A DNA stretch of 64,000 bases. Source: a virus (Duplodnaviria > Caudoviricetes). A model generated the notes under the pieces. The model ran no database searches. It saw only the letters and a program-made list of their open reading frames with translations, and had not been told where the DNA came from. Positions 26,894 to 43,389 of this stretch are shown in pieces. How positions within the stretch are numbered: the first letter of the stretch is position 1; each line of letters opens with the position of its first letter. Made by a program: the position numbers and the translations under genes. The stretch lies in IMG/VR virus record IMGVR_UViG_3300023119_000004; one strand, given 5' to 3'.

Positions 26894-27589
26894 TTATGCT
26901 ATTTTTGGAAATAATGCGTTAGTGCAGAATTCGTCAACATCTGCTTCATTAAGTCCTAATGACTTCATAACTCTAGGTGTATGTGGATTTTGTTGCTGGT
27001 TATGGCAGTAGTAGTTTTGAGCACCTGCTGTAATATCTACACTAGCATTGCCTGTATACTCAGGAACACTATCAAACCATACACGCAGGTTTTCTAAAGC
27101 AAGATCTACAATAGCAGTTGCTTCTTCTTCTGTGCGAACATTACCTGCGGCAACCATTCCTGGTGAAAAGATGTTCTGTGCCCATTCGGGTAGTTCACGT
27201 TGTTTACTAGGAATAAAATCTTTAACAGCATCTAAGTACCATTCTACAAGAGGATGTTCTTCACCGCCTGAACTTGCTGAAAAATCATGAAATGCACCTG
27301 TCATTTTATTCTTACCTGCAATAACATCAAAGCCGTAAATAGGACCATCATTTGATAACACAGGAAAACAACATACGTGCATCATCCACAGTCCGTGCGA
27401 GTCTCTTGCGTCTACAACATCAATGTGTGCTCTGCGTACATGATCATTTGCCCATACTCTGTTGATCCAACCGTTCTCAGGCTGATTAAATTTGTTTAAT
27501 CCTTTTTCTTCTATTTCAGTGGCTTTCTCATCAAAGATGTTTAATATTTCATTTTGGCATTCAATTAGTTTATCCCAAATGACACTCAT
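26894..27589 (-). CDS. pcyX: Ferredoxin-dependent bilin reductase, PcyX-type
   Basis: RAHIDVVD...WMMHVC-(17 aa)-GFDVI: His/Asp pair spaced as in PcyA/PcyX, Met two residues before the His, Asp 14 residues before it; ATG 27589 overlaps the halogenase TGA. Confidence 0.85.
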   Translation of the reverse strand: MSVIWDKLIECQNEILNIFDEKATEIEEKGLNKFNQPENGWINRVWANDHVRRAHIDVVDARDSHGLWMMHVCCFPVLSNDGPIYGFDVIAGKNKMTGAFHDFSASSGGEEHPLVEWYLDAVKDFIPSKQRELPEWAQNIFSPGMVAAGNVRTEEEATAIVDLALENLRVWFDSVPEYTGNASVDITAGAQNYYCHNQQQNPHTPRVMKSLGLNEADVDEFCTNALFPKIA

Positions 27590-29106
27590 GATCTGTTTCC
27601 CCAATCTCTATTATACATACCAGGTGTTGTCCAATCAACATCGTCTTTGTTCATCTTTTCTAAAAGTTCCATGGCTTTGTCTTTTTCTAATCCTGGTGAT
27701 GCTGTTTTAATTCCTGTTGTGTTAAGCCATAGTTTCCAATTCATCTCAGCAAAGATTTCTGTATTACGGGGGAAAAACTGATAGTCATCGTCCCACATAA
27801 CTGTAGGTGTATAGTTATGTTTAAAGTTTGTTGCAATCTCTGTAAGTTTATCTGTTTCCTTAAAGTTTTTATAAACGTGTTCCCAAAACTTACCTTTACG
27901 TGGATTATTAAAATAATGTAGTGCTACAAAGTTCATAGTATCTTCATAGACTGCTGTCATATCTTCGTTAAACTTTAATCTATCTTCTTCAGTATAACTT
28001 AGTTTTTCTAAAACTTTTAGGCCACTAGCACCAATTGTAAGTAATGCAAGTCCTGTTGATTCTAACGGTTCAATAAATCCACTAGCAAGTCCTACACTAA
28101 AACAGTTGCCTCTCCAGTTGTTTGCATTATATTCTGGCTTGAAAGGAACATGATTAAACTGTCCTGTTCTTAGTCTGTGTTCACCCCAATGCTGTACAAA
28201 GAAATCTTCTGCTTCTTGTTTAGTGGTAAGTTCACTGTTGTAACATAGTCCACTACCAATACGATCTTTAACAGGTGTTTTCCAAATCCAACCTAGGTCA
28301 CACGCCTGTGCAGTAACGTATGGAAGTTGTACTTCATCTTCTGTTTCGTAATCTATTTGACTTGCTACTGCGGCATTAGTAAACAGCATATGACTTCTGT
28401 CAATCCATTTACTGTCGGGCAATGCATTTGAAAGTAAACGTTTAAAGCCAGTACAGTCTACAAAAAAATCTGCTGTAACTTTTGTACCGTCATCTAATGT
28501 TACATATTCAATAACACCATCAGTAACCTTTGGAGCATCAATGTGTTTTTGAATATGTGTTAGTCTTGGATACTTCTTATTAAGATAATCAGATAAGAAG
28601 TTTGCTAGTTTAACAGCATCTAAATGATATCCTACATGAGCAGTACCACCGCAAGGTGTTGTGTTATTTGGAATCTTTTTATCTACAACAGAAACTTTAT
28701 GCCAAGCAATATATTTTTCTAATTCAACCTCATTAATGCCGCCGTCACGAGCAAGGTCAATGCTATCAAGTGTTCCGTGTTCTGTATGTGTTACAGGAAA
28801 AAAGAATGGTTGCCAAATGTTAATGCCGTCGCCCTTCCAGTTTGGAAAGTAAGTCCCTGTTTTAATAGTTGCGTCACAAGCCTTTGTCCATAGTTCTCTA
28901 GGAATATTACAATCGTCTAAAAAATGATCAAACCCTAAAATAGTTGCTTCACCTACGCCAACAATAGGAACATTAGGACTTTCAATAAGTGTGATTTGTG
29001 TTTCGGGTAAGTTTGATAATGCATAAGCGGCCGTAAGCCAACCAGCACTTCCTCCACCTACAATACAAATGGACCTAGCACGGCTACGACCTACTACTTC
29101 AGTCAT
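27586..29106 (-). CDS. Flavin-dependent (tryptophan) halogenase, PrnA/VirX1-like
   Basis: GGGSAG, VGEATI, CDATIK (catalytic Lys), GWIWKTP (WxWxIP-like), SGFIEPLESTG. Confidence 0.9.
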   Translation of the reverse strand: MTEVVGRSRARSICIVGGGSAGWLTAAYALSNLPETQITLIESPNVPIVGVGEATILGFDHFLDDCNIPRELWTKACDATIKTGTYFPNWKGDGINIWQPFFFPVTHTEHGTLDSIDLARDGGINEVELEKYIAWHKVSVVDKKIPNNTTPCGGTAHVGYHLDAVKLANFLSDYLNKKYPRLTHIQKHIDAPKVTDGVIEYVTLDDGTKVTADFFVDCTGFKRLLSNALPDSKWIDRSHMLFTNAAVASQIDYETEDEVQLPYVTAQACDLGWIWKTPVKDRIGSGLCYNSELTTKQEAEDFFVQHWGEHRLRTGQFNHVPFKPEYNANNWRGNCFSVGLASGFIEPLESTGLALLTIGASGLKVLEKLSYTEEDRLKFNEDMTAVYEDTMNFVALHYFNNPRKGKFWEHVYKNFKETDKLTEIATNFKHNYTPTVMWDDDYQFFPRNTEIFAEMNWKLWLNTTGIKTASPGLEKDKAMELLEKMNKDDVDWTTPGMYNRDWGNRS

Positions 29107-29638
29107 TATCGACCTCCATCATTTCTTTGAATGTTTCTGTAGCAAAGTCAAAACATATCTTTGCTTCTTCAGCCATATCATCGTTCAACTGTTCTCTTAT
29201 GGCTGTTTTCAGTTCGTCAACAGGAGCATCAAATTGATACAATCTTCCTTCTCCTGGAATTTTCTTTTTAATCATTTGTCCACCGCTTAGGTCACCCATG
29301 TGTCTAACATATACGTGAGCCATGACTTTATCTGGATCTCCCATAATTGTTCTCATATGTTCTAGATACTTTTCTGTTACTTTTAAAGTTTTAGGCATTT
29401 CTTGTTTAGGCCATAACTCTTTAAAATCATCTAGTATGCTCGGGGAACGTCTAATAGCAGGATGAGGCAATAAGCCATGTGTCATTGCTATTGCTTCTAA
29501 AATATTGTATTGAATATGTTGATTATATAAAAATGTTGCATAAAGTTCTTTGTCAATTTTACCTGACATTAAAACTTTTACAAATGCTTGGCGTTCTGCG
29601 TTCTTATGGTGTTCCCACGTTGCTTCTTTTAAGTTCAT
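29099..29638 (-). CDS. hemO: Heme oxygenase
   Basis: LKEATWEHHKNAE (proximal His), AHVYVRHMGDLSGGQMI, EAKICF. Confidence 0.92.
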   Translation of the reverse strand: MNLKEATWEHHKNAERQAFVKVLMSGKIDKELYATFLYNQHIQYNILEAIAMTHGLLPHPAIRRSPSILDDFKELWPKQEMPKTLKVTEKYLEHMRTIMGDPDKVMAHVYVRHMGDLSGGQMIKKKIPGEGRLYQFDAPVDELKTAIREQLNDDMAEEAKICFDFATETFKEMMEVDND

Positions 29639-29943
29639 TCTTTTTCCACTTTGATCTGCAATGGGAATCCGTTTGCTCTGCTCAAAGTGGTTGCTTCTAC
29701 GCTTTTTTGTTCTGCAATTTCAAATGCGTAAACGCCAACTACTGCACTTCCATCTTCATGAATTTGTAGAGTTAGATTTTTTGCTGTGTCAACAGAATGC
29801 TTAAAAGTAGTTACTAGCACATCGATCACGAAATCCATTGGTGTTTGGTCATCATTAATAAAAATAACTGAGTACCTTTCGGGCTCAGCAATTTTTATCT
29901 TAATCTTTTCGTCAATTTGTACATCCATATTATTACTTATCAT
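29635..29943 (-). CDS. clpS: N-end-rule adaptor ClpS
   Basis: YSVIFINDDQTPMDFVI...QIHEDGSAVVG..FEIAEQK...GFPL; SD AGGAGA before ATG 29943. Confidence 0.92.
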   Translation of the reverse strand: MISNNMDVQIDEKIKIKIAEPERYSVIFINDDQTPMDFVIDVLVTTFKHSVDTAKNLTLQIHEDGSAVVGVYAFEIAEQKSVEATTLSRANGFPLQIKVEKE

Positions 29944-29970
29944 TGTATGATCTCCTACCAGTAAATAATG

Positions 29971-29994
29971 ATAGTGGGGATTGCTCCCCACTAC
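29971..29994 (-). terminator. Strong GCAA-tetraloop hairpin between hsp20 and clpS (weak terminator or processing site)
   Basis: GTAGTGGGGA-GCAA-TCCCCACTAT, only a short U-tract. Confidence 0.55.
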
Positions 29995-30010
29995 CGACCT
30001 TTTAAGTGTA

Positions 30011-30460
30011 TTACTTAACTTCGATTGATCTTGCTTTTTTAGCCTCTGGAATAATTCTTTCCAAAGCAATTCTAAGCAAGCCATCTTTTAGTTCAGCACC
30101 TTGTACTACTACATCGTCTGCAATAGTAAATGATTTAGTAAAGTGCCTTTTACTAATACCTCTGTATTGTACACCATCCGCTTCATCGTCAGTTTTTGAC
30201 TCTTGGATTGATTTAACAGTTACCACACCGTCTTCGTATGATACGTCAATATCCTTTTTGCCAAAACCAGCAAGTGCTAATTCAATATCGTAAGTATAGT
30301 CGCCTGTTTTTACAATATTGTATGGCGGATAGTTAGTGTTAAAAGTAGGTGCATTGAAGAAGTCGTCTTCAATCATTCTTTCGAATCTATCAAAGATAGG
30401 ATCGAACCCTACTGATACGGGTCTTAGTTGGTTAAAGATTGATAGTGATTTGTTTGTCAT
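30011..30460 (-). CDS. hsp20: Small heat-shock protein Hsp20/IbpA
   Basis: YPPYNI...ELALAGF...YRGIS.R.F.KSF...A.LKDGLL.I.L. Confidence 0.95.
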   Translation of the reverse strand: MTNKSLSIFNQLRPVSVGFDPIFDRFERMIEDDFFNAPTFNTNYPPYNIVKTGDYTYDIELALAGFGKKDIDVSYEDGVVTVKSIQESKTDDEADGVQYRGISKRHFTKSFTIADDVVVQGAELKDGLLRIALERIIPEAKKARSIEVK

Positions 30461-38637: not shown

Positions 38638-39096
38638 TTAATTTCGACGCATTTGTGCGATTTCTGTGGCTTGTTTCTTACCATTACCGCTATCGTCTTC
38701 AAAAATTGGAACCATATTACTTTTGTGCATTGTAGCAATGCCCAAAAGTTTTCTTTCACCTGTGTACTGCATTGGTTCCTTTTTAGTACAGGGTGAAAAA
38801 CTTGCTGACGTTTGTAAACTTGGAATGTGTTTTGTTTCACGGGTAACAGTTGGGCCACTATAGTGCCACGGTGTATTGATAACAGTTTCTGTTTTGGTTT
38901 TTGGTTTGTATTCTCCGTGAATGTAATCAATGTACTCGTCCAAAGTCATCATTAGTTTATGAAGTCCTTGTTTCTTGTATTCTTTATTTCGAATACGTAA
39001 ATCTTCTTTCCAACGATCTAACTTTGCCTGTGTAATTTTACGCTTCTTCTTAGTTGTGTTAAGAGTAGTTAAGCCTCGAGCCAAATGCATTGTCAT
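38638..39096 (-). CDS. Conserved phage hypothetical protein
   Basis: YTGERKLLGIATMHKSNMVPIF C-terminus; early promoter at 39128-39156. Confidence 0.7.
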   Translation of the reverse strand: MTMHLARGLTTLNTTKKKRKITQAKLDRWKEDLRIRNKEYKKQGLHKLMMTLDEYIDYIHGEYKPKTKTETVINTPWHYSGPTVTRETKHIPSLQTSASFSPCTKKEPMQYTGERKLLGIATMHKSNMVPIFEDDSGNGKKQATEIAQMRRN

Positions 39097-39169
39097 ATTG
39101 TCACCTTTATGTTACATTAACACACTTATTGTAGTATATAGATGACAAAAAGTCAAGTGAAATTTAGCC

Positions 39170-39193
39170 AAAAAAATAGGGCCCGAAGGCCCC
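39170..39193 (-). terminator. Rho-independent terminator after porin
   Basis: GGGGCC-TTCG-GGCCCT hairpin followed by T7. Confidence 0.8.
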
Positions 39194-39209
39194 ATCTTTT
39201 ATTTTAGTA

Positions 39210-40259
39210 TTAGAATTTGTATTTGACGCTTGCCAATACTTGCTGTGTTTCAGCGTGTTCGGCACCAGTAAATACGGAACGTCCACCTTTATCGTGGTAG
39301 TAAAGTCCCATTTCCAACCCGTCCTGTTTGTCAGAACGTTTTGAAGGATCGTAGTTTGTTGCTAGGTTATATACTACACCGTAGTAGTTACCATCATATC
39401 CTAAGTCATCATTTTCAGTTCTGTGTGCTGTAACATAAACGTTTTTGTTTACGTTATACATTACACCGTAATCTAAACGATCGTCTTTTGTATATGTGCC
39501 TGTATTCTTATCGTCCCACAGTTCAACACCCCAAACTAATGGAACGTTCCATCTGTATAAACTACCACCAATTGAATAACCTTCTTGGTCACCTTTGCCT
39601 GAATCTTCAGGAGAAGTAATACGCATATAAGATACATCTGCATAACCCATTAAACTAATTGTACCTGTTGCATAACCTACGTTTCCGTCGTTATCCCAAC
39701 CAAGTGAAACACCCCAAGGCTGTTCTTTCTTTAGTCTATATGAATCAAAATCAAATTCGTTGTCATATTCCCAACCACCAAATGTTAACACAGTTTTTTC
39801 TCTGTGATCAATTCTGTAGTTTGTTTCTGTATAGATTAGTGGAACAGAAATTTTAGGAGTCTTTGCGAATCCCATTCTTTGTGCGTCAGTTTCACCAATG
39901 TACCATCTTGCTACATCATTACCAAAACCTAATTGCTTTTCTTGAACAGTATTGTTTAATGTTGTATCTAATGAATAGTGAGTGTCGTACTTCATTGATG
40001 CCCCAATCCAATCCACTGAAAGTGTTTCAGGAATGTTTGTTGAAATACCTAGTTGCAATTCTGCACGTGAGTCCCAACCTGAATCATAGGTTTTGTCATC
40101 ATAGTAACCTTCTACTTCACCATTTACAAAAAAGCCTTGCGGCAAGTTTGGAATATTATTTTCTAAAGCCTCTACTCTTTCTTCAAGACTTTTGTCATTA
40201 GCCAATGCACCTGTTGCAAATCCAAACAGGATGGCTAACACTAATGTTAGTTGTTTCAT
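39210..40259 (-). CDS. Outer-membrane porin (beta-barrel)
   Basis: Signal peptide ..GALA, short coiled coil, alternating aromatic beta pattern, C-terminal VKYKF beta-signal; late promoter at 40321-40328. Confidence 0.75.
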   Translation of the reverse strand: MKQLTLVLAILFGFATGALANDKSLEERVEALENNIPNLPQGFFVNGEVEGYYDDKTYDSGWDSRAELQLGISTNIPETLSVDWIGASMKYDTHYSLDTTLNNTVQEKQLGFGNDVARWYIGETDAQRMGFAKTPKISVPLIYTETNYRIDHREKTVLTFGGWEYDNEFDFDSYRLKKEQPWGVSLGWDNDGNVGYATGTISLMGYADVSYMRITSPEDSGKGDQEGYSIGGSLYRWNVPLVWGVELWDDKNTGTYTKDDRLDYGVMYNVNKNVYVTAHRTENDDLGYDGNYYGVVYNLATNYDPSKRSDKQDGLEMGLYYHDKGGRSVFTGAEHAETQQVLASVKYKF

Positions 40260-40358: not shown

Positions 40359-40817
40359 CTAATCCCACAAATTTTCGTAGTACTTGCCAAAAAGTCGGAA
40401 GCCATTTGAAATACGTTTCTGTTCTTTATCTATTTCTTTTTTATCTTCAAGACGCATCCATACATCGTCTTTGTTTGCTTTACAATCGAACGCATATATC
40501 ATTTCGTCAAGGACCCAATCCCAACGCTTAAAATGATTGTCATCTGTTTGGCCTTGATACATTGCACTAATCTGTTCTTTCGGTGGCCACAGTTCTTTTG
40601 GAACATCTTTTTCATCTACATAAGGAGCGCCGTGTTTTGTTTCCTTTAATTGTTTGAGCATAGGTAAGATAATTGGAGCAAGTGTATGATCCATACTCCA
40701 AGTATCCCACTTGTCAATATGTACTTTTACTTTTTGTTCTGGACTGTATCCAAACTTGTCATACAGCCAATTGCTCCACGGCCAATGATCCGGGTACTTT
40801 CCAATTTTAACCTTCAT
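40359..40817 (-). CDS. Conserved phage hypothetical protein
   Basis: DTWSMDHTLAPIILPML...RWDWVLDEMI. Confidence 0.7.
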   Translation of the reverse strand: MKVKIGKYPDHWPWSNWLYDKFGYSPEQKVKVHIDKWDTWSMDHTLAPIILPMLKQLKETKHGAPYVDEKDVPKELWPPKEQISAMYQGQTDDNHFKRWDWVLDEMIYAFDCKANKDDVWMRLEDKKEIDKEQKRISNGFRLFGKYYENLWD

Positions 40818-40995
40818 AACTTACCACCTTTACGTTTTGTTCTTTGCCGGGCAAAGTAAATCCTCCTGCATATTCAAATGCTGTTTCTACATCTTCAAAT
40901 AGAACAGGCTTAAGATTCCAATCGCATTTACCTGTATTCTCTGTTACAAAAATCCAATCGTCTTTACCATCAAGGCAAATCATTATAGCGTACAC
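40807..40995 (-). CDS. Hypothetical protein
   Basis: Tightly packed small ORF. Confidence 0.6.
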   Translation of the reverse strand: MYAIMICLDGKDDWIFVTENTGKCDWNLKPVLFEDVETAFEYAGGFTLPGKEQNVKVVSYEG

Positions 40996-41186
40996 TAGTA
41001 ATCTACCTCTTCAAAACTTTCCTTAATATATGCCATATTGTATTTGGAGGGATAATGTTTTAACAATCTACTTGCTTCTTCTCTAACTGCTCGTGGCACC
41101 CGTGGATACTTCTTAGGATCTCGCAGGTCCATTAGAAATCGTTCTACGTTTAATACTGCATTTGTTCTTTCAATTGGTAATGTCAT
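40995..41186 (-). CDS. Hypothetical protein
   Basis: MTLPIER...VPRAVREEASRLLKHYP. Confidence 0.7.
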   Translation of the reverse strand: MTLPIERTNAVLNVERFLMDLRDPKKYPRVPRAVREEASRLLKHYPSKYNMAYIKESFEEVDY

Positions 41187-41497
41187 AGTTCTACAATCTC
41201 TACACCGTCGCCAAACTTTTCTTTAAGTTCGTTGTAAACGCCAGCATTGCTCATACGCAATCCTTGATAATCTTTACGCAGATTATACACACTTCCGCTG
41301 TCAGTTTCAACTGTGATGTAGTCTTTTTCAACATCAATGTTCATTGTTTTAATAGGACTGCTCATACGCCAACTGTCACCGTATAGATACGAACCACTCC
41401 AGCCTGCGAGAATTTTTTGAAACTGTTCGCCGTTGTGTTTGATTTCTAATACTACCCAAGTATCTGGGGATATACCTTGTTCTGGTTCTAGTTTCAT
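41183..41497 (-). CDS. Hypothetical protein
   Basis: KILAGWSGSYLYGDSWRMSS. Confidence 0.7.
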   Translation of the reverse strand: MKLEPEQGISPDTWVVLEIKHNGEQFQKILAGWSGSYLYGDSWRMSSPIKTMNIDVEKDYITVETDSGSVYNLRKDYQGLRMSNAGVYNELKEKFGDGVEIVEL

Positions 41498-41769
41498 TCT
41501 ATCTCTGCTCCAAAGCCATTTTCAGTAGCGTACAACTTCTTAATTTTTCTACCATCAATTTCCATTCCTAATGCTACAAATGGTCCACCACTTGGATCAA
41601 ACATTCCTAAGTCTAAAGTGTCTATACCTTCAACACCTTCTCGTCCACCATAACGGCAGTATTTCAAACTATCGCCTTCCATAGTAAATTCATATGTGCT
41701 TTCTGATACTTTTGTCCAAGTATAAGAATCACTATATCTATTTGTATATTTTACATCAGATTTAAACAT
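41494..41769 (-). CDS. Hypothetical protein
   Basis: Coupled ORF, DPSGGPF. Confidence 0.65.
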   Translation of the reverse strand: MFKSDVKYTNRYSDSYTWTKVSESTYEFTMEGDSLKYCRYGGREGVEGIDTLDLGMFDPSGGPFVALGMEIDGRKIKKLYATENGFGAEIE

Positions 41770-41953
41770 CGTCTTTTTTCTTTAGGCTCCAATTACCATT
41801 GTCTAATTCTTCCCAGATAAGTGTATCGCCAATGTCCCAACCTACTTGGGCTAATGCTTCTGGGGGGAGTTCTAAATATAATTCTTTTGTCTTGCCATCT
41901 TCTTGAACTTGAACAGTCCAAGAATTTTCACCGGTCTGTATTGGATTTCGTAT
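41762..41953 (-). CDS. AbrB/MazE-like swapped-hairpin small protein
   Basis: LYLELPPEALAQVGWDIGDTLIW. Confidence 0.55.
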   Translation of the reverse strand: MRNPIQTGENSWTVQVQEDGKTKELYLELPPEALAQVGWDIGDTLIWEELDNGNWSLKKKDDV

Positions 41954-41974
41954 CATTGCTGTCACCTTTGATAA

Positions 41975-42296
41975 TTAAAAAGTGCAACTTTTCTGTTGCT
42001 AGGGAAGTTGCCACCCCCGAGTGATTATGCCGCTAGGGCAAAATCCTCAGAAAGACGAACGTCTTTTTGCTCACCGAAGTTTACAAAAGAAACGTTGTCC
42101 AATGCTTTATCGTTTGCATCTATAACGTTTGCTTGATTTACGGTCATCGCCTACCGGTAACTCCACGTTCTCTAGTACATCAGTCGATCCCGATCACCCC
42201 CTCAAAGCACACTCTGTGAATGTGTTTTAAGTGAATGGTGGAGGTGGGGGGAATTGAACCCCCGTCCTGCCTGTGTTCGATTGGCTTCATCGTTAC
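41975..42296 (-). ncRNA. ssrA: Circularly permuted two-piece tmRNA
   Basis: Acceptor piece first (T-arm GGGGG-TTCAATT-CCCCC, CACCTCC-A-CCA ending 42236), 34-nt spacer, then coding piece starting GGGGGTG at 42201. G3:U70 Ala determinant; tag ANDKALDNVSFVNFGEQKDVRLSEDFALAA* at 42117-42025; terminator hairpin near 41975-42010. Confidence 0.92.
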
Positions 42297-42303
42297 AATA
42301 CTT

Positions 42304-42332
42304 ATTTAACTACATTTTAACGCACTTGTCAA
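42304..42332 (-). promoter_or_regulatory. tmRNA promoter TTGACA-N17-TTAAAT (overlaps TAAATA)
   Basis: Hexamer spacing. Confidence 0.6.
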
Positions 42333-42426: not shown

Positions 42427-42573
42427 ATGGCGAAGTTAGCAAAATCATACGTAAAACACGTAAGAACTCCAAAGAAAACAAGTCAAAGTTCTAGACGTAA
42501 ATCATGTAAAATGAGTTCTATGAACAAACACAAAAAACGTAATCATAAGTTTAATGTGGGACAAGGACGTTAA
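42427..42573 (+). CDS. Small basic protein (48 aa)
   Basis: MAK...PKKTSQ...KMSSMNKHKKRNHKFNVGQGR; SD AAAGGA; TAATG-coupled to next gene. Confidence 0.7.
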   Translation: MAKLAKSYVKHVRTPKKTSQSSRRKSCKMSSMNKHKKRNHKFNVGQGR

Positions 42574-42767
42574 TGGCGGTTAAAAAAATAAAAGGTGTAA
42601 AATCACACAATTACAAAAGATATATTAATGATGTAGAAGTTAAACCAATTAGGTTTGTATTTACTGGTGGTCGTAATTTACTTGCAGGAGCAGTTGATGG
42701 CGAGATAGTTATGGATCAAAATGGAAACCCAGTTCCTTTTCATAATATAGATTGTGATTTTAGATAA
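42573..42767 (+). CDS. Hypothetical protein
   Basis: 64 aa. Confidence 0.65.
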   Translation: MAVKKIKGVKSHNYKRYINDVEVKPIRFVFTGGRNLLAGAVDGEIVMDQNGNPVPFHNIDCDFR

Positions 42768-42769
42768 AA

Positions 42770-42997
42770 TTACTTATTAAAGTTTTCAGGGCGAGTTAAA
42801 TTGCCTGCAATCATTCTGCCTCTATTGTCAACAAGTTCATACTCAAGCATCATCTTATTTTGAATTGCTGTTATATGAGCATCGTTAAAGGCACTGATAT
42901 GAACAAAAACGTCCTGACCACCTTCGACAGGTGTTATAAAGCCATAACCCTTCTTCGAGTCAAACCATTTAAGTTTACCAGTATGTCGTTCTGCCAT
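42770..42997 (-). CDS. cspA: Cold-shock protein
   Basis: GKLKWFDSKKGYGFI (RNP1), DVFVHIS (RNP2). Confidence 0.93.
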   Translation of the reverse strand: MAERHTGKLKWFDSKKGYGFITPVEGGQDVFVHISAFNDAHITAIQNKMMLEYELVDNRGRMIAGNLTRPENFNK

Positions 42998-43121
42998 TTA
43001 TATATTCCTAATTCTCTGTTAAATTATTTAACAAAGTATTTATGCTCTATGCTGGACATTTAAATGCGTAGATACGGCACAGGACGAGCCTGTGCAGTAA
43101 CTACAATTAATAAAGATTGAA

Positions 43122-43301
43122 TTAAAGTGCGTTCTTACGCTCTTGAATTTCAGCACGTCTAGACTTCGCAAGTTTACCAATATTACCTAGTGCTTTTCTT
43201 GCTCTTGCCGCCGCGGCTTTCACGTTTTTTGAATCAAACGCTTCTGCTTCTTTTAAGTAAGCCTCATATTCGGCTACGATTTGTTCATGAATTGAAGACA
43301 T
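43122..43301 (-). CDS. Histone H1-like Hc1-family protein
   Basis: KNVKAAAARARKALGNIGKLAKSRRAEIQ; start ATG 43301 after AAGGAGA. Confidence 0.75.
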   Translation of the reverse strand: MSSIHEQIVAEYEAYLKEAEAFDSKNVKAAAARARKALGNIGKLAKSRRAEIQERKNAL

Positions 43302-43389
43302 AATTTTCTCCTTGTCTATTATAATTATCGCCATATTAAAATCATACTCGCAGATCTGGCGTTACGATGTCTAAAATGGTGAAATTGTT

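Follow-up and report, generated by a model that had tools for sequence, protein, structure and literature searches.

A circularly permuted tmRNA gene with a long, hairpin-bearing tag frame in a putative lineage of large T4-like phages

The 64,000-nucleotide stretch of the virus record IMGVR_UViG_3300023119_000004 (the window, by which we mean the whole stretch) carries a complete, circularly permuted transfer-messenger RNA (tmRNA) gene on its minus strand, at about 42332-41975. It is the single tmRNA gene of such type in the window. We think it probable (about 0.8) that the gene is a phage ssrA of the two-piece, or circularly permuted, type, that it is functional, and that it is an inherited, syntenic feature of a lineage of uncultured large T4-like phages. 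Coordinates below are those of the whole stretch, and RNA elements are listed 5' to 3' on the minus strand, which is the tmRNA strand.

Two-piece tmRNAs of phages are already established, so the presence of one here adds little in itself and its value is descriptive. Buchholz et al. 2022 (PMC9004378) reported tmRNAs in 402 of 18,146 phage genomes, with 133 unique structures. The two-piece kind, found in isolate genomes, made up 53 of these, and 50 of the 53 had a marine or aquatic phage as their source. That work treats Pelagibacter phage Mosig, a Prochlorococcus phage and phage Melnitz. We confirmed permuted tmRNAs in the Pelagibacter phages Mosig (93.6 bits) and HTVC008M (90.6 bits). An earlier note on this DNA, written from its letters, was right in its structural reading, but its premise that phage tmRNAs are one-piece is outdated in view of these cases. 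The 2025 tmRNA database (PMC11915505) holds 79 bacteriophage sequences, and 13.7 kb of the supplementary text of its paper did not contain the tag motifs of the family described below. What is new here is modest and undescribed within the literature searched: a syntenic phage-only tmRNA family, a long tag that bears a hairpin, and module exchange.

Gene structure and the family of related loci

ARAGORN called a permuted tmRNA at 41934-42330(-) with the tag ANDKALDNVSFVNFGEQKDVRLSEDFALAA. The Rfam model RF04321 (tmRNA_permuted) matched with 104 bits (gathering threshold 47, E 3.4e-19) over 42296-42025, full-length along model positions 1-213, and RF01849 (alpha_tmRNA) matched with 74.4 bits (gathering threshold 50, E 2.3e-18) over 42336-41981. 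The match of the gene to tmRNA models is far beyond chance. Both ARAGORN and alpha_tmRNA had been proposed as checks in the earlier note, and both recovered the gene. Together with the stem pairing described next, these calls bear out its claim of a phage-borne permuted tmRNA with an intact tRNA-like domain and tag frame.

The RNA begins with a 61-nt acceptor piece (42236-42296, minus strand), delimited by the RF04321 alignment and by scripted stem pairing. This piece comprises a 5' extension with one strand of the P2 helix (GUAAC...), a T-arm (GGGGG/UUCAAUU/CCCCC), the acceptor strand CACCUCC, the discriminator A and an encoded CCA, which ends at 42236. A 34-nt spacer, predicted to be excised, follows (42202-42235, minus strand). 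It can form a 7-bp hairpin, CACAUUC-ACA-GAGUGUG, with a folding energy of -7.9 kcal/mol (z -1.9). The 5' acceptor strand GGGGGUG starts at 42201, after the spacer, and pairs with CACCUCC, itself followed by ACCA, in a perfect 7-bp acceptor stem with G3:U70. This order, with the T-arm and the CACCTCC-A-CCA end before the spacer and GGGGGTG, had been read correctly beforehand, as had G3:U70, the AUAGAU-GCA resume context and the ...ALAA stop.

The 5' part of the coding piece (42118-42201, minus strand), as aligned to RF04321 and RF01849, contains GGGGGUG, the D-arm analogue AUCGGGAUCGAC, the return strand of P2 (GUUAC, 42161-42157), the hairpin CCGG-UAGGCGAUGA-CCG and the resume context UAUAGAU. 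The tag reading frame (42025-42117, minus strand) was placed by ARAGORN and by alignment of relatives. It opens with the alanine resume codon GCA at 42117, runs for 30 codons and ends ...FALAA before the stop UAA at 42027-42025. The 3' trailer (41975-42024, minus strand) is predicted from folding and a terminator scan to be pseudoknot-like, with GGGGG...CCC interleaved with GCAAC...GUUGC. Its second stem, with ACUUUUU, resembles an intrinsic terminator, and this stem (41999-41984) with its U run was the only such site in the 1-kb region scanned. Upstream, a putative sigma70-like promoter (42304-42332, minus strand) can be read from the sequence: the -35 element TTGACA at 42332-42327, a 17-nt spacer and the -10 element TTAAAT at 42309-42304, with a predicted start near 42297. 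TTGACA lies at the equal aligned position in six related contigs (L003, L005, L014, L016, L019 and L096), where the -10 element is TATAAA(T).

From these elements we infer how the RNA may work. A precursor of about 320 nt would be transcribed from its own sigma70-like promoter and end at the intrinsic terminator. Host tRNA-processing enzymes would remove the 34-nt spacer, with RNase P cutting at G1 (42201) and 3' trimming reaching the encoded CCA (42236). Two products are predicted, an acceptor piece of 61 nt and a coding piece of some 224 nt, close to the pieces of about 60 and 220 nt estimated in the earlier note; pairing in the acceptor stem (7 bp) and in the P2 helix would hold them together. 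Host alanyl-tRNA synthetase may charge the RNA through G3:U70. With host SmpB, the RNA would then enter stalled ribosomes, translation would resume at GCA, and the 30-amino-acid tag ending in ALAA would be appended as a mark for host proteases. The tripled length of the tag comes from a structured hairpin module in frame, which has been exchanged between tmRNA backbones.

To gather relatives we took the closing 24 nt of the tag frame as an exact anchor. It was found without mismatch in 45 IMG/VR contigs and 32 metagenome contigs, and a motif from the 5' half of the tmRNA added 11 further viral contigs. The family thus gathered numbers more than 70 uncultured viral or metagenome contigs and is apparently undescribed and phage-only. 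No cellular context was seen among the family contigs, and the pattern EDFALAA-stop occurred in none of 401 sampled alphaproteobacterial genomes. A blastn search of the tmRNA against GenBank phages returned nothing at E 1e-5, and at E 1 it returned only T-arm matches to unrelated tmRNAs; therefore, no cultured phage among those searched carries a family member. Two contigs found by a 19-nt motif of the tmRNA 5' half (L017:11934-11986 and L022:5487-5539) carry the Mu-gpT-DE RNA (RF03012) and gave no tmRNA call.

Base pairing is conserved across the family. In all 55 loci compared by script, a T-stem is directly followed by the acceptor 3' strand and ACCA, and 18-149 nt further on stands a 5' strand that pairs perfectly with this acceptor strand. 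The acceptor stem occurs in seven versions that differ by compensatory changes, the T-stem in eight, and G3:U70 is invariant. The trailer pseudoknot element is also kept by compensatory changes (GCAAC/GUUGC, GCGAC/GUCGC, GCCAC/GUGGC), and both Rfam consensus sequences, alpha and beta, have a matching element in their 3' part. The spacer varies in length from 18 to 149 nt. Long spacers of 104-149 nt were found in L003, L067 (149 nt), L081 (119 nt) and L016 (104 nt), against 18-34 nt, and ARAGORN misses these genes.

The genomic position is conserved as well. Wherever the flank suffices, the tmRNA gene stands at the end of the block NrdA-NrdB-glutaredoxin (Grx)-107-amino-acid open reading frame (ORF)-Hc1-like protein-cold-shock protein (CSD)-tmRNA, which was seen in about 40 IMG/VR and about 20 metagenome contigs. 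NrdA and NrdB of the family are 75-89% identical to those of the window, as compared to about 70% for any cultured phage.

The carrier itself, judged from sequence, is an uncultured, very large T4-like phage, because of its gene content, NrdA identity, blastn result and presence in metagenomes. The window has 35-39% GC and tightly packed genes, mostly on one strand, with PHROG matches to baseplate and tail-fibre proteins, a DNA ligase and a class Ia ribonucleotide reductase. Its NrdA is about 70% identical to that of T4-like cyanophages and of Pelagibacter phage Mosig, with nothing cultured closer. In blastn of 8 kb, nrdAB was the sole match, at less than 70% identity, and the DNA of the window is present in salt-marsh metagenomes. 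Family contigs of 69-116 kb were rated 19-35% complete by CheckV, which gives genomes of 330-390 kb, and one family contig is 228 kb long; the genomes of the lineage appear to be 310-390 kb. One 69-kb family contig, L061, has the IMG/VR class provirus though the lineage looks T4-like and lytic, and this class may be a misclassification.

tmRNA subtype and the question of the host

The earlier note had taken the RNA to be matched to an alphaproteobacterial host, which is unproven. Acquisition from, and matching to, such a host, for example a member of SAR11, Rhodobacterales or Hyphomicrobiales, may have occurred, but we put it somewhat short of an even chance. It would agree with the retention of alpha_tmRNA by cmscan as the best-scoring clan member for the window, with a tag that begins AND and ends ALAA like the 37 sampled alphaproteobacterial tags, and with the alpha consensus T-loop GGCGGUA, which many family members have and the window does not. 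It would also agree with the permuted tmRNAs of Pelagibacter myophages, and phages with the hemO-pcyX cassette carry an AlaS most similar to Pelagibacteraceae (PMC11480375). Among cellular genomes, the exact T-arm/acceptor core in permuted layout was found only in Salinarimonas, an alphaproteobacterium; 32 nt of it are common to the Salinarimonas tmRNA, L003 and L005.

The same comparisons set limits to an alphaproteobacterial assignment. The alpha score of the window is only 74 bits, against 121 for Salinarimonas, and the 7-bp helix specific to the alpha type is absent. Sampled cellular alphaproteobacterial tmRNAs share with the window only 33 nt of T-arm/acceptor, the stretch with the core identical in Salinarimonas. 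BLAST against 50 cellular alpha tmRNAs, Mosig and HTVC008M likewise gave no similarity beyond the T-arm. On RF04321, cellular alpha tmRNAs scored 120-170 bits, a tally that includes one unpublished genome (G041) on which no claim depends, and phage ones 90-113.

In addition, several features resemble the beta type. The closest relative of the 5' module, L014, scored best as beta_tmRNA (RF01850) with 101.6 bits, and L016 did so with 93.2 bits, both over the cut-off of 84, whereas the sampled cellular alpha tmRNAs reached at most 72 bits on this model. L003, L005, L019 and L021 scored best as alpha. For the window, beta_tmRNA was not reported at its 84-bit gathering threshold, and clan competition in cmscan hides its exact beta score, as it does the cyano score. 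The spacer of the window is identical to that of L014, and its hairpin matches the spacer of the Rfam beta_tmRNA consensus almost base for base. None of 302 genomes screened for cellular beta-type references, namely 151 sampled by phylum and 151 from the class of genome G427 (assumed to be Gammaproteobacteria), had a tmRNA over the RF01850 cut-off.

The type of a tmRNA is not a safe host marker in any case. Phage Melnitz has an alpha-type tmRNA yet infects OM43 (PMC9004378), and on this precedent host taxonomy should not be read from the Rfam subtype of a viral tmRNA. A cyanophage origin was dropped as unsupported. By NrdA, two large cyanophages come nearest, and both lack a permuted tmRNA; psbA was not found in five large family contigs, and the cyano model was not the best of the clan.

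Two side observations concern the T-arm/acceptor core and Salinarimonas. The IMG/VR contigs L001, L002 and L004 end in 3' fragments of a standard one-piece tmRNA with the exact 32-nt T-arm/acceptor of the window, and these fragments are probably attachment sites of integrated elements. In Salinarimonas soli (G001), a second permuted tmRNA match at C169:81793-82007 scored 80.2 bits, against 117.8 for the main copy; this copy, scoring in the phage range, may lie on a prophage.

The long tag and its hairpin

The tag of the window has 30 amino acids. In relatives that share its tRNA-like core the tag is 9-14 amino acids long (ANENFALAA, ANDNFAPEMRLAA, GEDNFALAA, ANFNEYALAA), and 37 cellular and viral relatives have tags of 9-20. 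Most family members have tags of 27-31 amino acids, with 15 distinct peptides, and all 15 share the core F-V-[N/D]-F and the end EDFALAA. An exact 26-mer from the start of the window tag had no match in IMG/VR, where this tag variant is unique so far. Compared with the relatives that have 9-14-amino-acid tags, codons 5-24 or so of the window tag are an extra segment. It folds as a hairpin with a cUUCGg tetraloop, which is spelled by the codons N-F-G.

In every subfamily a hairpin stands at the same codons with a different sequence. For example, AC-UUCG-GU is spelled N-F-G, while GUAGA-UUUU-UCUGC is spelled V-D-F-S-A. The N/D and G/S replacements in the peptide therefore co-vary in a way that keeps the pairing. 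When the tags were recoded with the peptide preserved, the real sequences folded more stably in 15 of 15 unique tags (mean z -2.4; window z -2.17). Indels in the tag frame are multiples of three across the family, and the frame is kept. Variable sites fall at 16, 15 and 18 of 24 for the three codon positions, without excess at the third. We conclude that the added stretch is a structured module of RNA which lies within the reading frame and is presumably translated as part of it.

The modules have been exchanged. Over RNA positions 3-194 the window gene is 92% identical to that of L014, which has a 9-amino-acid tag; this part takes in the acceptor piece, the spacer (the same in both), the tRNA-like 5' half and the resume region, and its portion 42118-42201 is 92-94% identical to L014 and L015. 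Over positions 170-321, with tag, pseudoknot and terminator, it is 85% identical to L054, L066 and L085, which are long-tag contigs. The window gene is thus a short-tag-type 5' module joined to a long-tag 3' module. Related phages therefore have either the short- or the long-tag form at one and the same locus, and modules have been exchanged between the forms.

A peptide role for the long segment is possible, if less well supported than the RNA structure. Under this explanation, the extra 20 or so residues, with the core N-V-T/S-F-V-N/D-F-G/S, were selected as an added degron or as an adaptor or protease site, and the RNA hairpin is secondary. The partner could be a host SspB-like protein, Lon, FtsH or a phage factor such as its own ClpS, and rescued proteins would be routed unlike those tagged by the host. 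Long tags in Mycoplasma switch specificity to Lon, and in E. coli ClpS blocks the action of ClpAP on ssrA-tagged proteins; this phage encodes ClpS and Hsp20. The F-V-x-F core is invariant in the 15 distinct tags while its codons vary synonymously (TTT/TTC; GTA/GTT/GTG), amino acid identity is 0.55 in the tag frame against 0.47 and 0.45 in the other two frames, and the insertion leaves intact AND(N/K) at the N-terminus and FALAA at the C-terminus.

Other measurements make selection for the peptide rather unlikely as the main cause. The ratio of nonsynonymous to synonymous polymorphism (pN/pS) is only 0.68 over the variable part of the tag. The N/D and G/S replacements follow base pairing rather than chemistry, and the codons in use make the RNA more stable than the peptide would require. 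The segment is also dispensable, as 14- and 9-amino-acid tags exist in the same lineage at the same locus, and no candidate adaptor co-occurs beside the gene.

A more speculative proposal, which we consider unlikely, is that the long-tag module is a virus-specific, translated and structured expansion of the mRNA-like domain that moves as a cassette between tmRNA backbones and alters what follows rescue. If so, tagged proteins might be re-routed to another protease or adaptor, possibly with phage ClpS, or translation of the tag might be gated or slowed. Large T4-like phages would then be active re-programmers of host protein quality control and not carriers of a spare ssrA.

Expression, other roles and comparison with known systems

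Of the words sampled from 2.5 kb around the gene, 58-87% are present in six salt-marsh metatranscriptome runs. In three of four runs compared, contigs cover the terminator, the tag and the P2 region at 100% identity, and in one of these runs the gene is covered from end to end, spacer included, by contigs that overlap. These contigs show presence in RNA libraries and say nothing on processing.

Several points weigh against a functional two-piece phage ssrA gene. The RNA-library data are assembled contigs that lack ends and strand, one run spans the spacer, and carry-over of DNA is possible; neither transcript ends nor two separate pieces nor a tagged protein were seen. As a -10 hexamer TTAAAT is weak, and a consensus promoter scan did not list the promoter because the hexamer breaks its rule of A at position 2. 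The P2 helix is partly supported: in the covariance model alignment of GUAAC (42296-42292) with GUUAC (42161-42157) several inner pairs are non-standard, and thermodynamic co-folding of the two pieces gives the acceptor stem and not P2, with an energy no better than that of shuffled partners. The family members are related, so that the 15 recoding z-scores are not independent. The conservation of EDFALAA is by construction, owing to the exact 24-nt anchor, and the breadth of the family is uncertain. As for SmpB, a profile from 12 alphaproteobacterial SmpB proteins detected none in the window or at any of 57 viral loci, a search that took in 64 kb of this phage and not the other 250 kb or so of its genome. 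Five large family contigs likewise gave no SmpB. This absence fits reliance on host SmpB.

It would also be in line with an RNA that competes for host SmpB. As a competitor or decoy, the RNA would take over or inhibit host trans-translation and would not be a rescue factor for the phage. There is a precedent in mycobacteriophage DS6A, whose tmRNA without a coding sequence inhibits endogenous tmRNA in E. coli (cited in PMC11915505), and selective tagging of host proteins by phage tmRNA has been proposed (PMC9004378). The window gene, in contrast, has a complete and conserved tag frame with a canonical C-terminal degron, a resume context and a stop, which a pure decoy would not need, and this makes a decoy distinctly improbable. 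A passively carried host fragment with no phage function, for example from imprecise excision at an attachment site in a tmRNA gene, can be dismissed almost entirely: tmRNA genes are common integration sites, and of five exact-core IMG/VR matches three are the 3' part of a standard tmRNA cut off by the end of the contig, but the gene here is complete, with its own conserved promoter and terminator, its locus is the same in more than 60 related contigs from a lineage of T4-like (lytic-type) phages, and the compensatory substitutions and the synteny already contradict this idea.

Directly upstream of the tmRNA lies a gene for a cold-shock-domain protein (42770-42997, minus strand; Pfam CSD, E 1e-17), whose homologues, 75-80% identical, stand beside the tmRNA in 42 viral loci and also in metagenome contigs. 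Together with an Hc1-like, histone H1-type protein (the pair at 42770-43334, minus strand), it is kept beside the tmRNA in about 40 related contigs. Two ORFs on the plus strand, 42428-42502 and 42573-42767, are divergent from the tmRNA promoter. The former has 24 codons, a very basic product and a plausible ribosome-binding site; the latter encodes 64 amino acids, and 17 related contigs have a weak homologue of it (38-40% identity) in the corresponding place. The five small ORFs that follow the tmRNA directly on its downstream side (40359-41965, minus strand) have no homologue in any related contig, while the genes further downstream (38638-40259) are again common to them. A variable islet thus seems to sit right behind the tmRNA terminator. 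Pfam searches of ten neighbouring small ORFs found no adaptor, protease or RNA-processing gene.

The ClpS and Hsp20 genes lie about 12 kb from the tmRNA in a run of genes on one strand (26894-30460, minus strand). This run contains Hsp20 (30011-30460), ClpS with an N-terminal extension of about 66 amino acids (29635-30084), a heme oxygenase (29099-29638), a tryptophan-halogenase-like protein (27586-29106) and a ferredoxin-dependent bilin reductase (26894-27604). The occurrence of a phage ClpS beside a chaperone, with a tmRNA in the same genome, suggests manipulation of proteolysis by the phage.

The family is a sizeable phage-only group of tmRNAs at one locus of what appear to be uncultured, very large T4-like phages from marine and salt-marsh samples. 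Among close relatives a hairpin cassette is present, absent or exchanged and sets the length of the tag. This makes the family a natural experiment on what a tmRNA tag requires at the RNA level and at the peptide level.

Among known systems, the nearest in setting are the Pelagibacter phages Mosig and HTVC008M and the Methylophilales phage Melnitz (PMC9004378). Like the window, they have a permuted ssrA in marine T4-like (Kyanoviridae-related) myophages, and no phage SmpB has been reported for them. The tmRNAs of Mosig and HTVC008M are detectable by ARAGORN, score at similar levels on RF04321 and RF01849 (91-94 bits as compared to 104 for the window) and have alpha-like tags that end in ALAA, as in the window. 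Their similarity to the window is, however, confined to the T-arm and acceptor (42.8 bits or none), tags of this type have 9-10 amino acids against 30, and the genomes of the three phages are 141-147 kb whereas the window lineage appears to have 310-390 kb. A glutamine riboswitch associated with ssrA is a mark of the Melnitz/Mosig type; no glnA-type riboswitch was found in the 64-kb window by Rfam at the gathering threshold.

The cellular alpha two-piece tmRNA (RF01849), with the Caulobacter prototype (Keiler et al. 2000, cited in PMC9004378), has the same order of acceptor piece, spacer and coding piece as the window. Both have G3:U70, an encoded CCA, a tag of the form AND... ...LAA and a single 3' pseudoknot with a ACCUGGCAACAGAA-like sequence. 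Cleavage of permuted precursors by tRNA-processing enzymes (PMC11915505) would also be common to both, as predicted for the window gene. The differences lie in the score on RF04321 (120-170 bits for cellular alphas, 104 for the window), in the T-loop, which is GGCGGUA in the cellular alpha consensus and UUCAAUU in the window, and in the alpha-specific 7-bp P2 segment of RF01849, which is deleted in the window (marked vvvvvvv). The consensus of the betaproteobacterial type (RF01850) closely matches the window in two hairpins, that of the spacer and CCGGUAGGCGAUGACCG, and in how the terminal pseudoknot is built; its gathering score is exceeded by the relatives L014 and L016, and the window itself is unreported above the 84-bit cut-off.

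Tag length alone is not unprecedented. Mycoplasma tmRNA tags have about 27 amino acids, and in the small-genome alphaproteobacteria L103, L106, L110 and L111 ARAGORN gave tags of 24-30 amino acids. The long tags of Mycoplasma and of these alphaproteobacteria have no sequence in common with the window family. Unlike these, the window family owes its extra tag length to a discrete hairpin module that is present or absent among close relatives at one locus.

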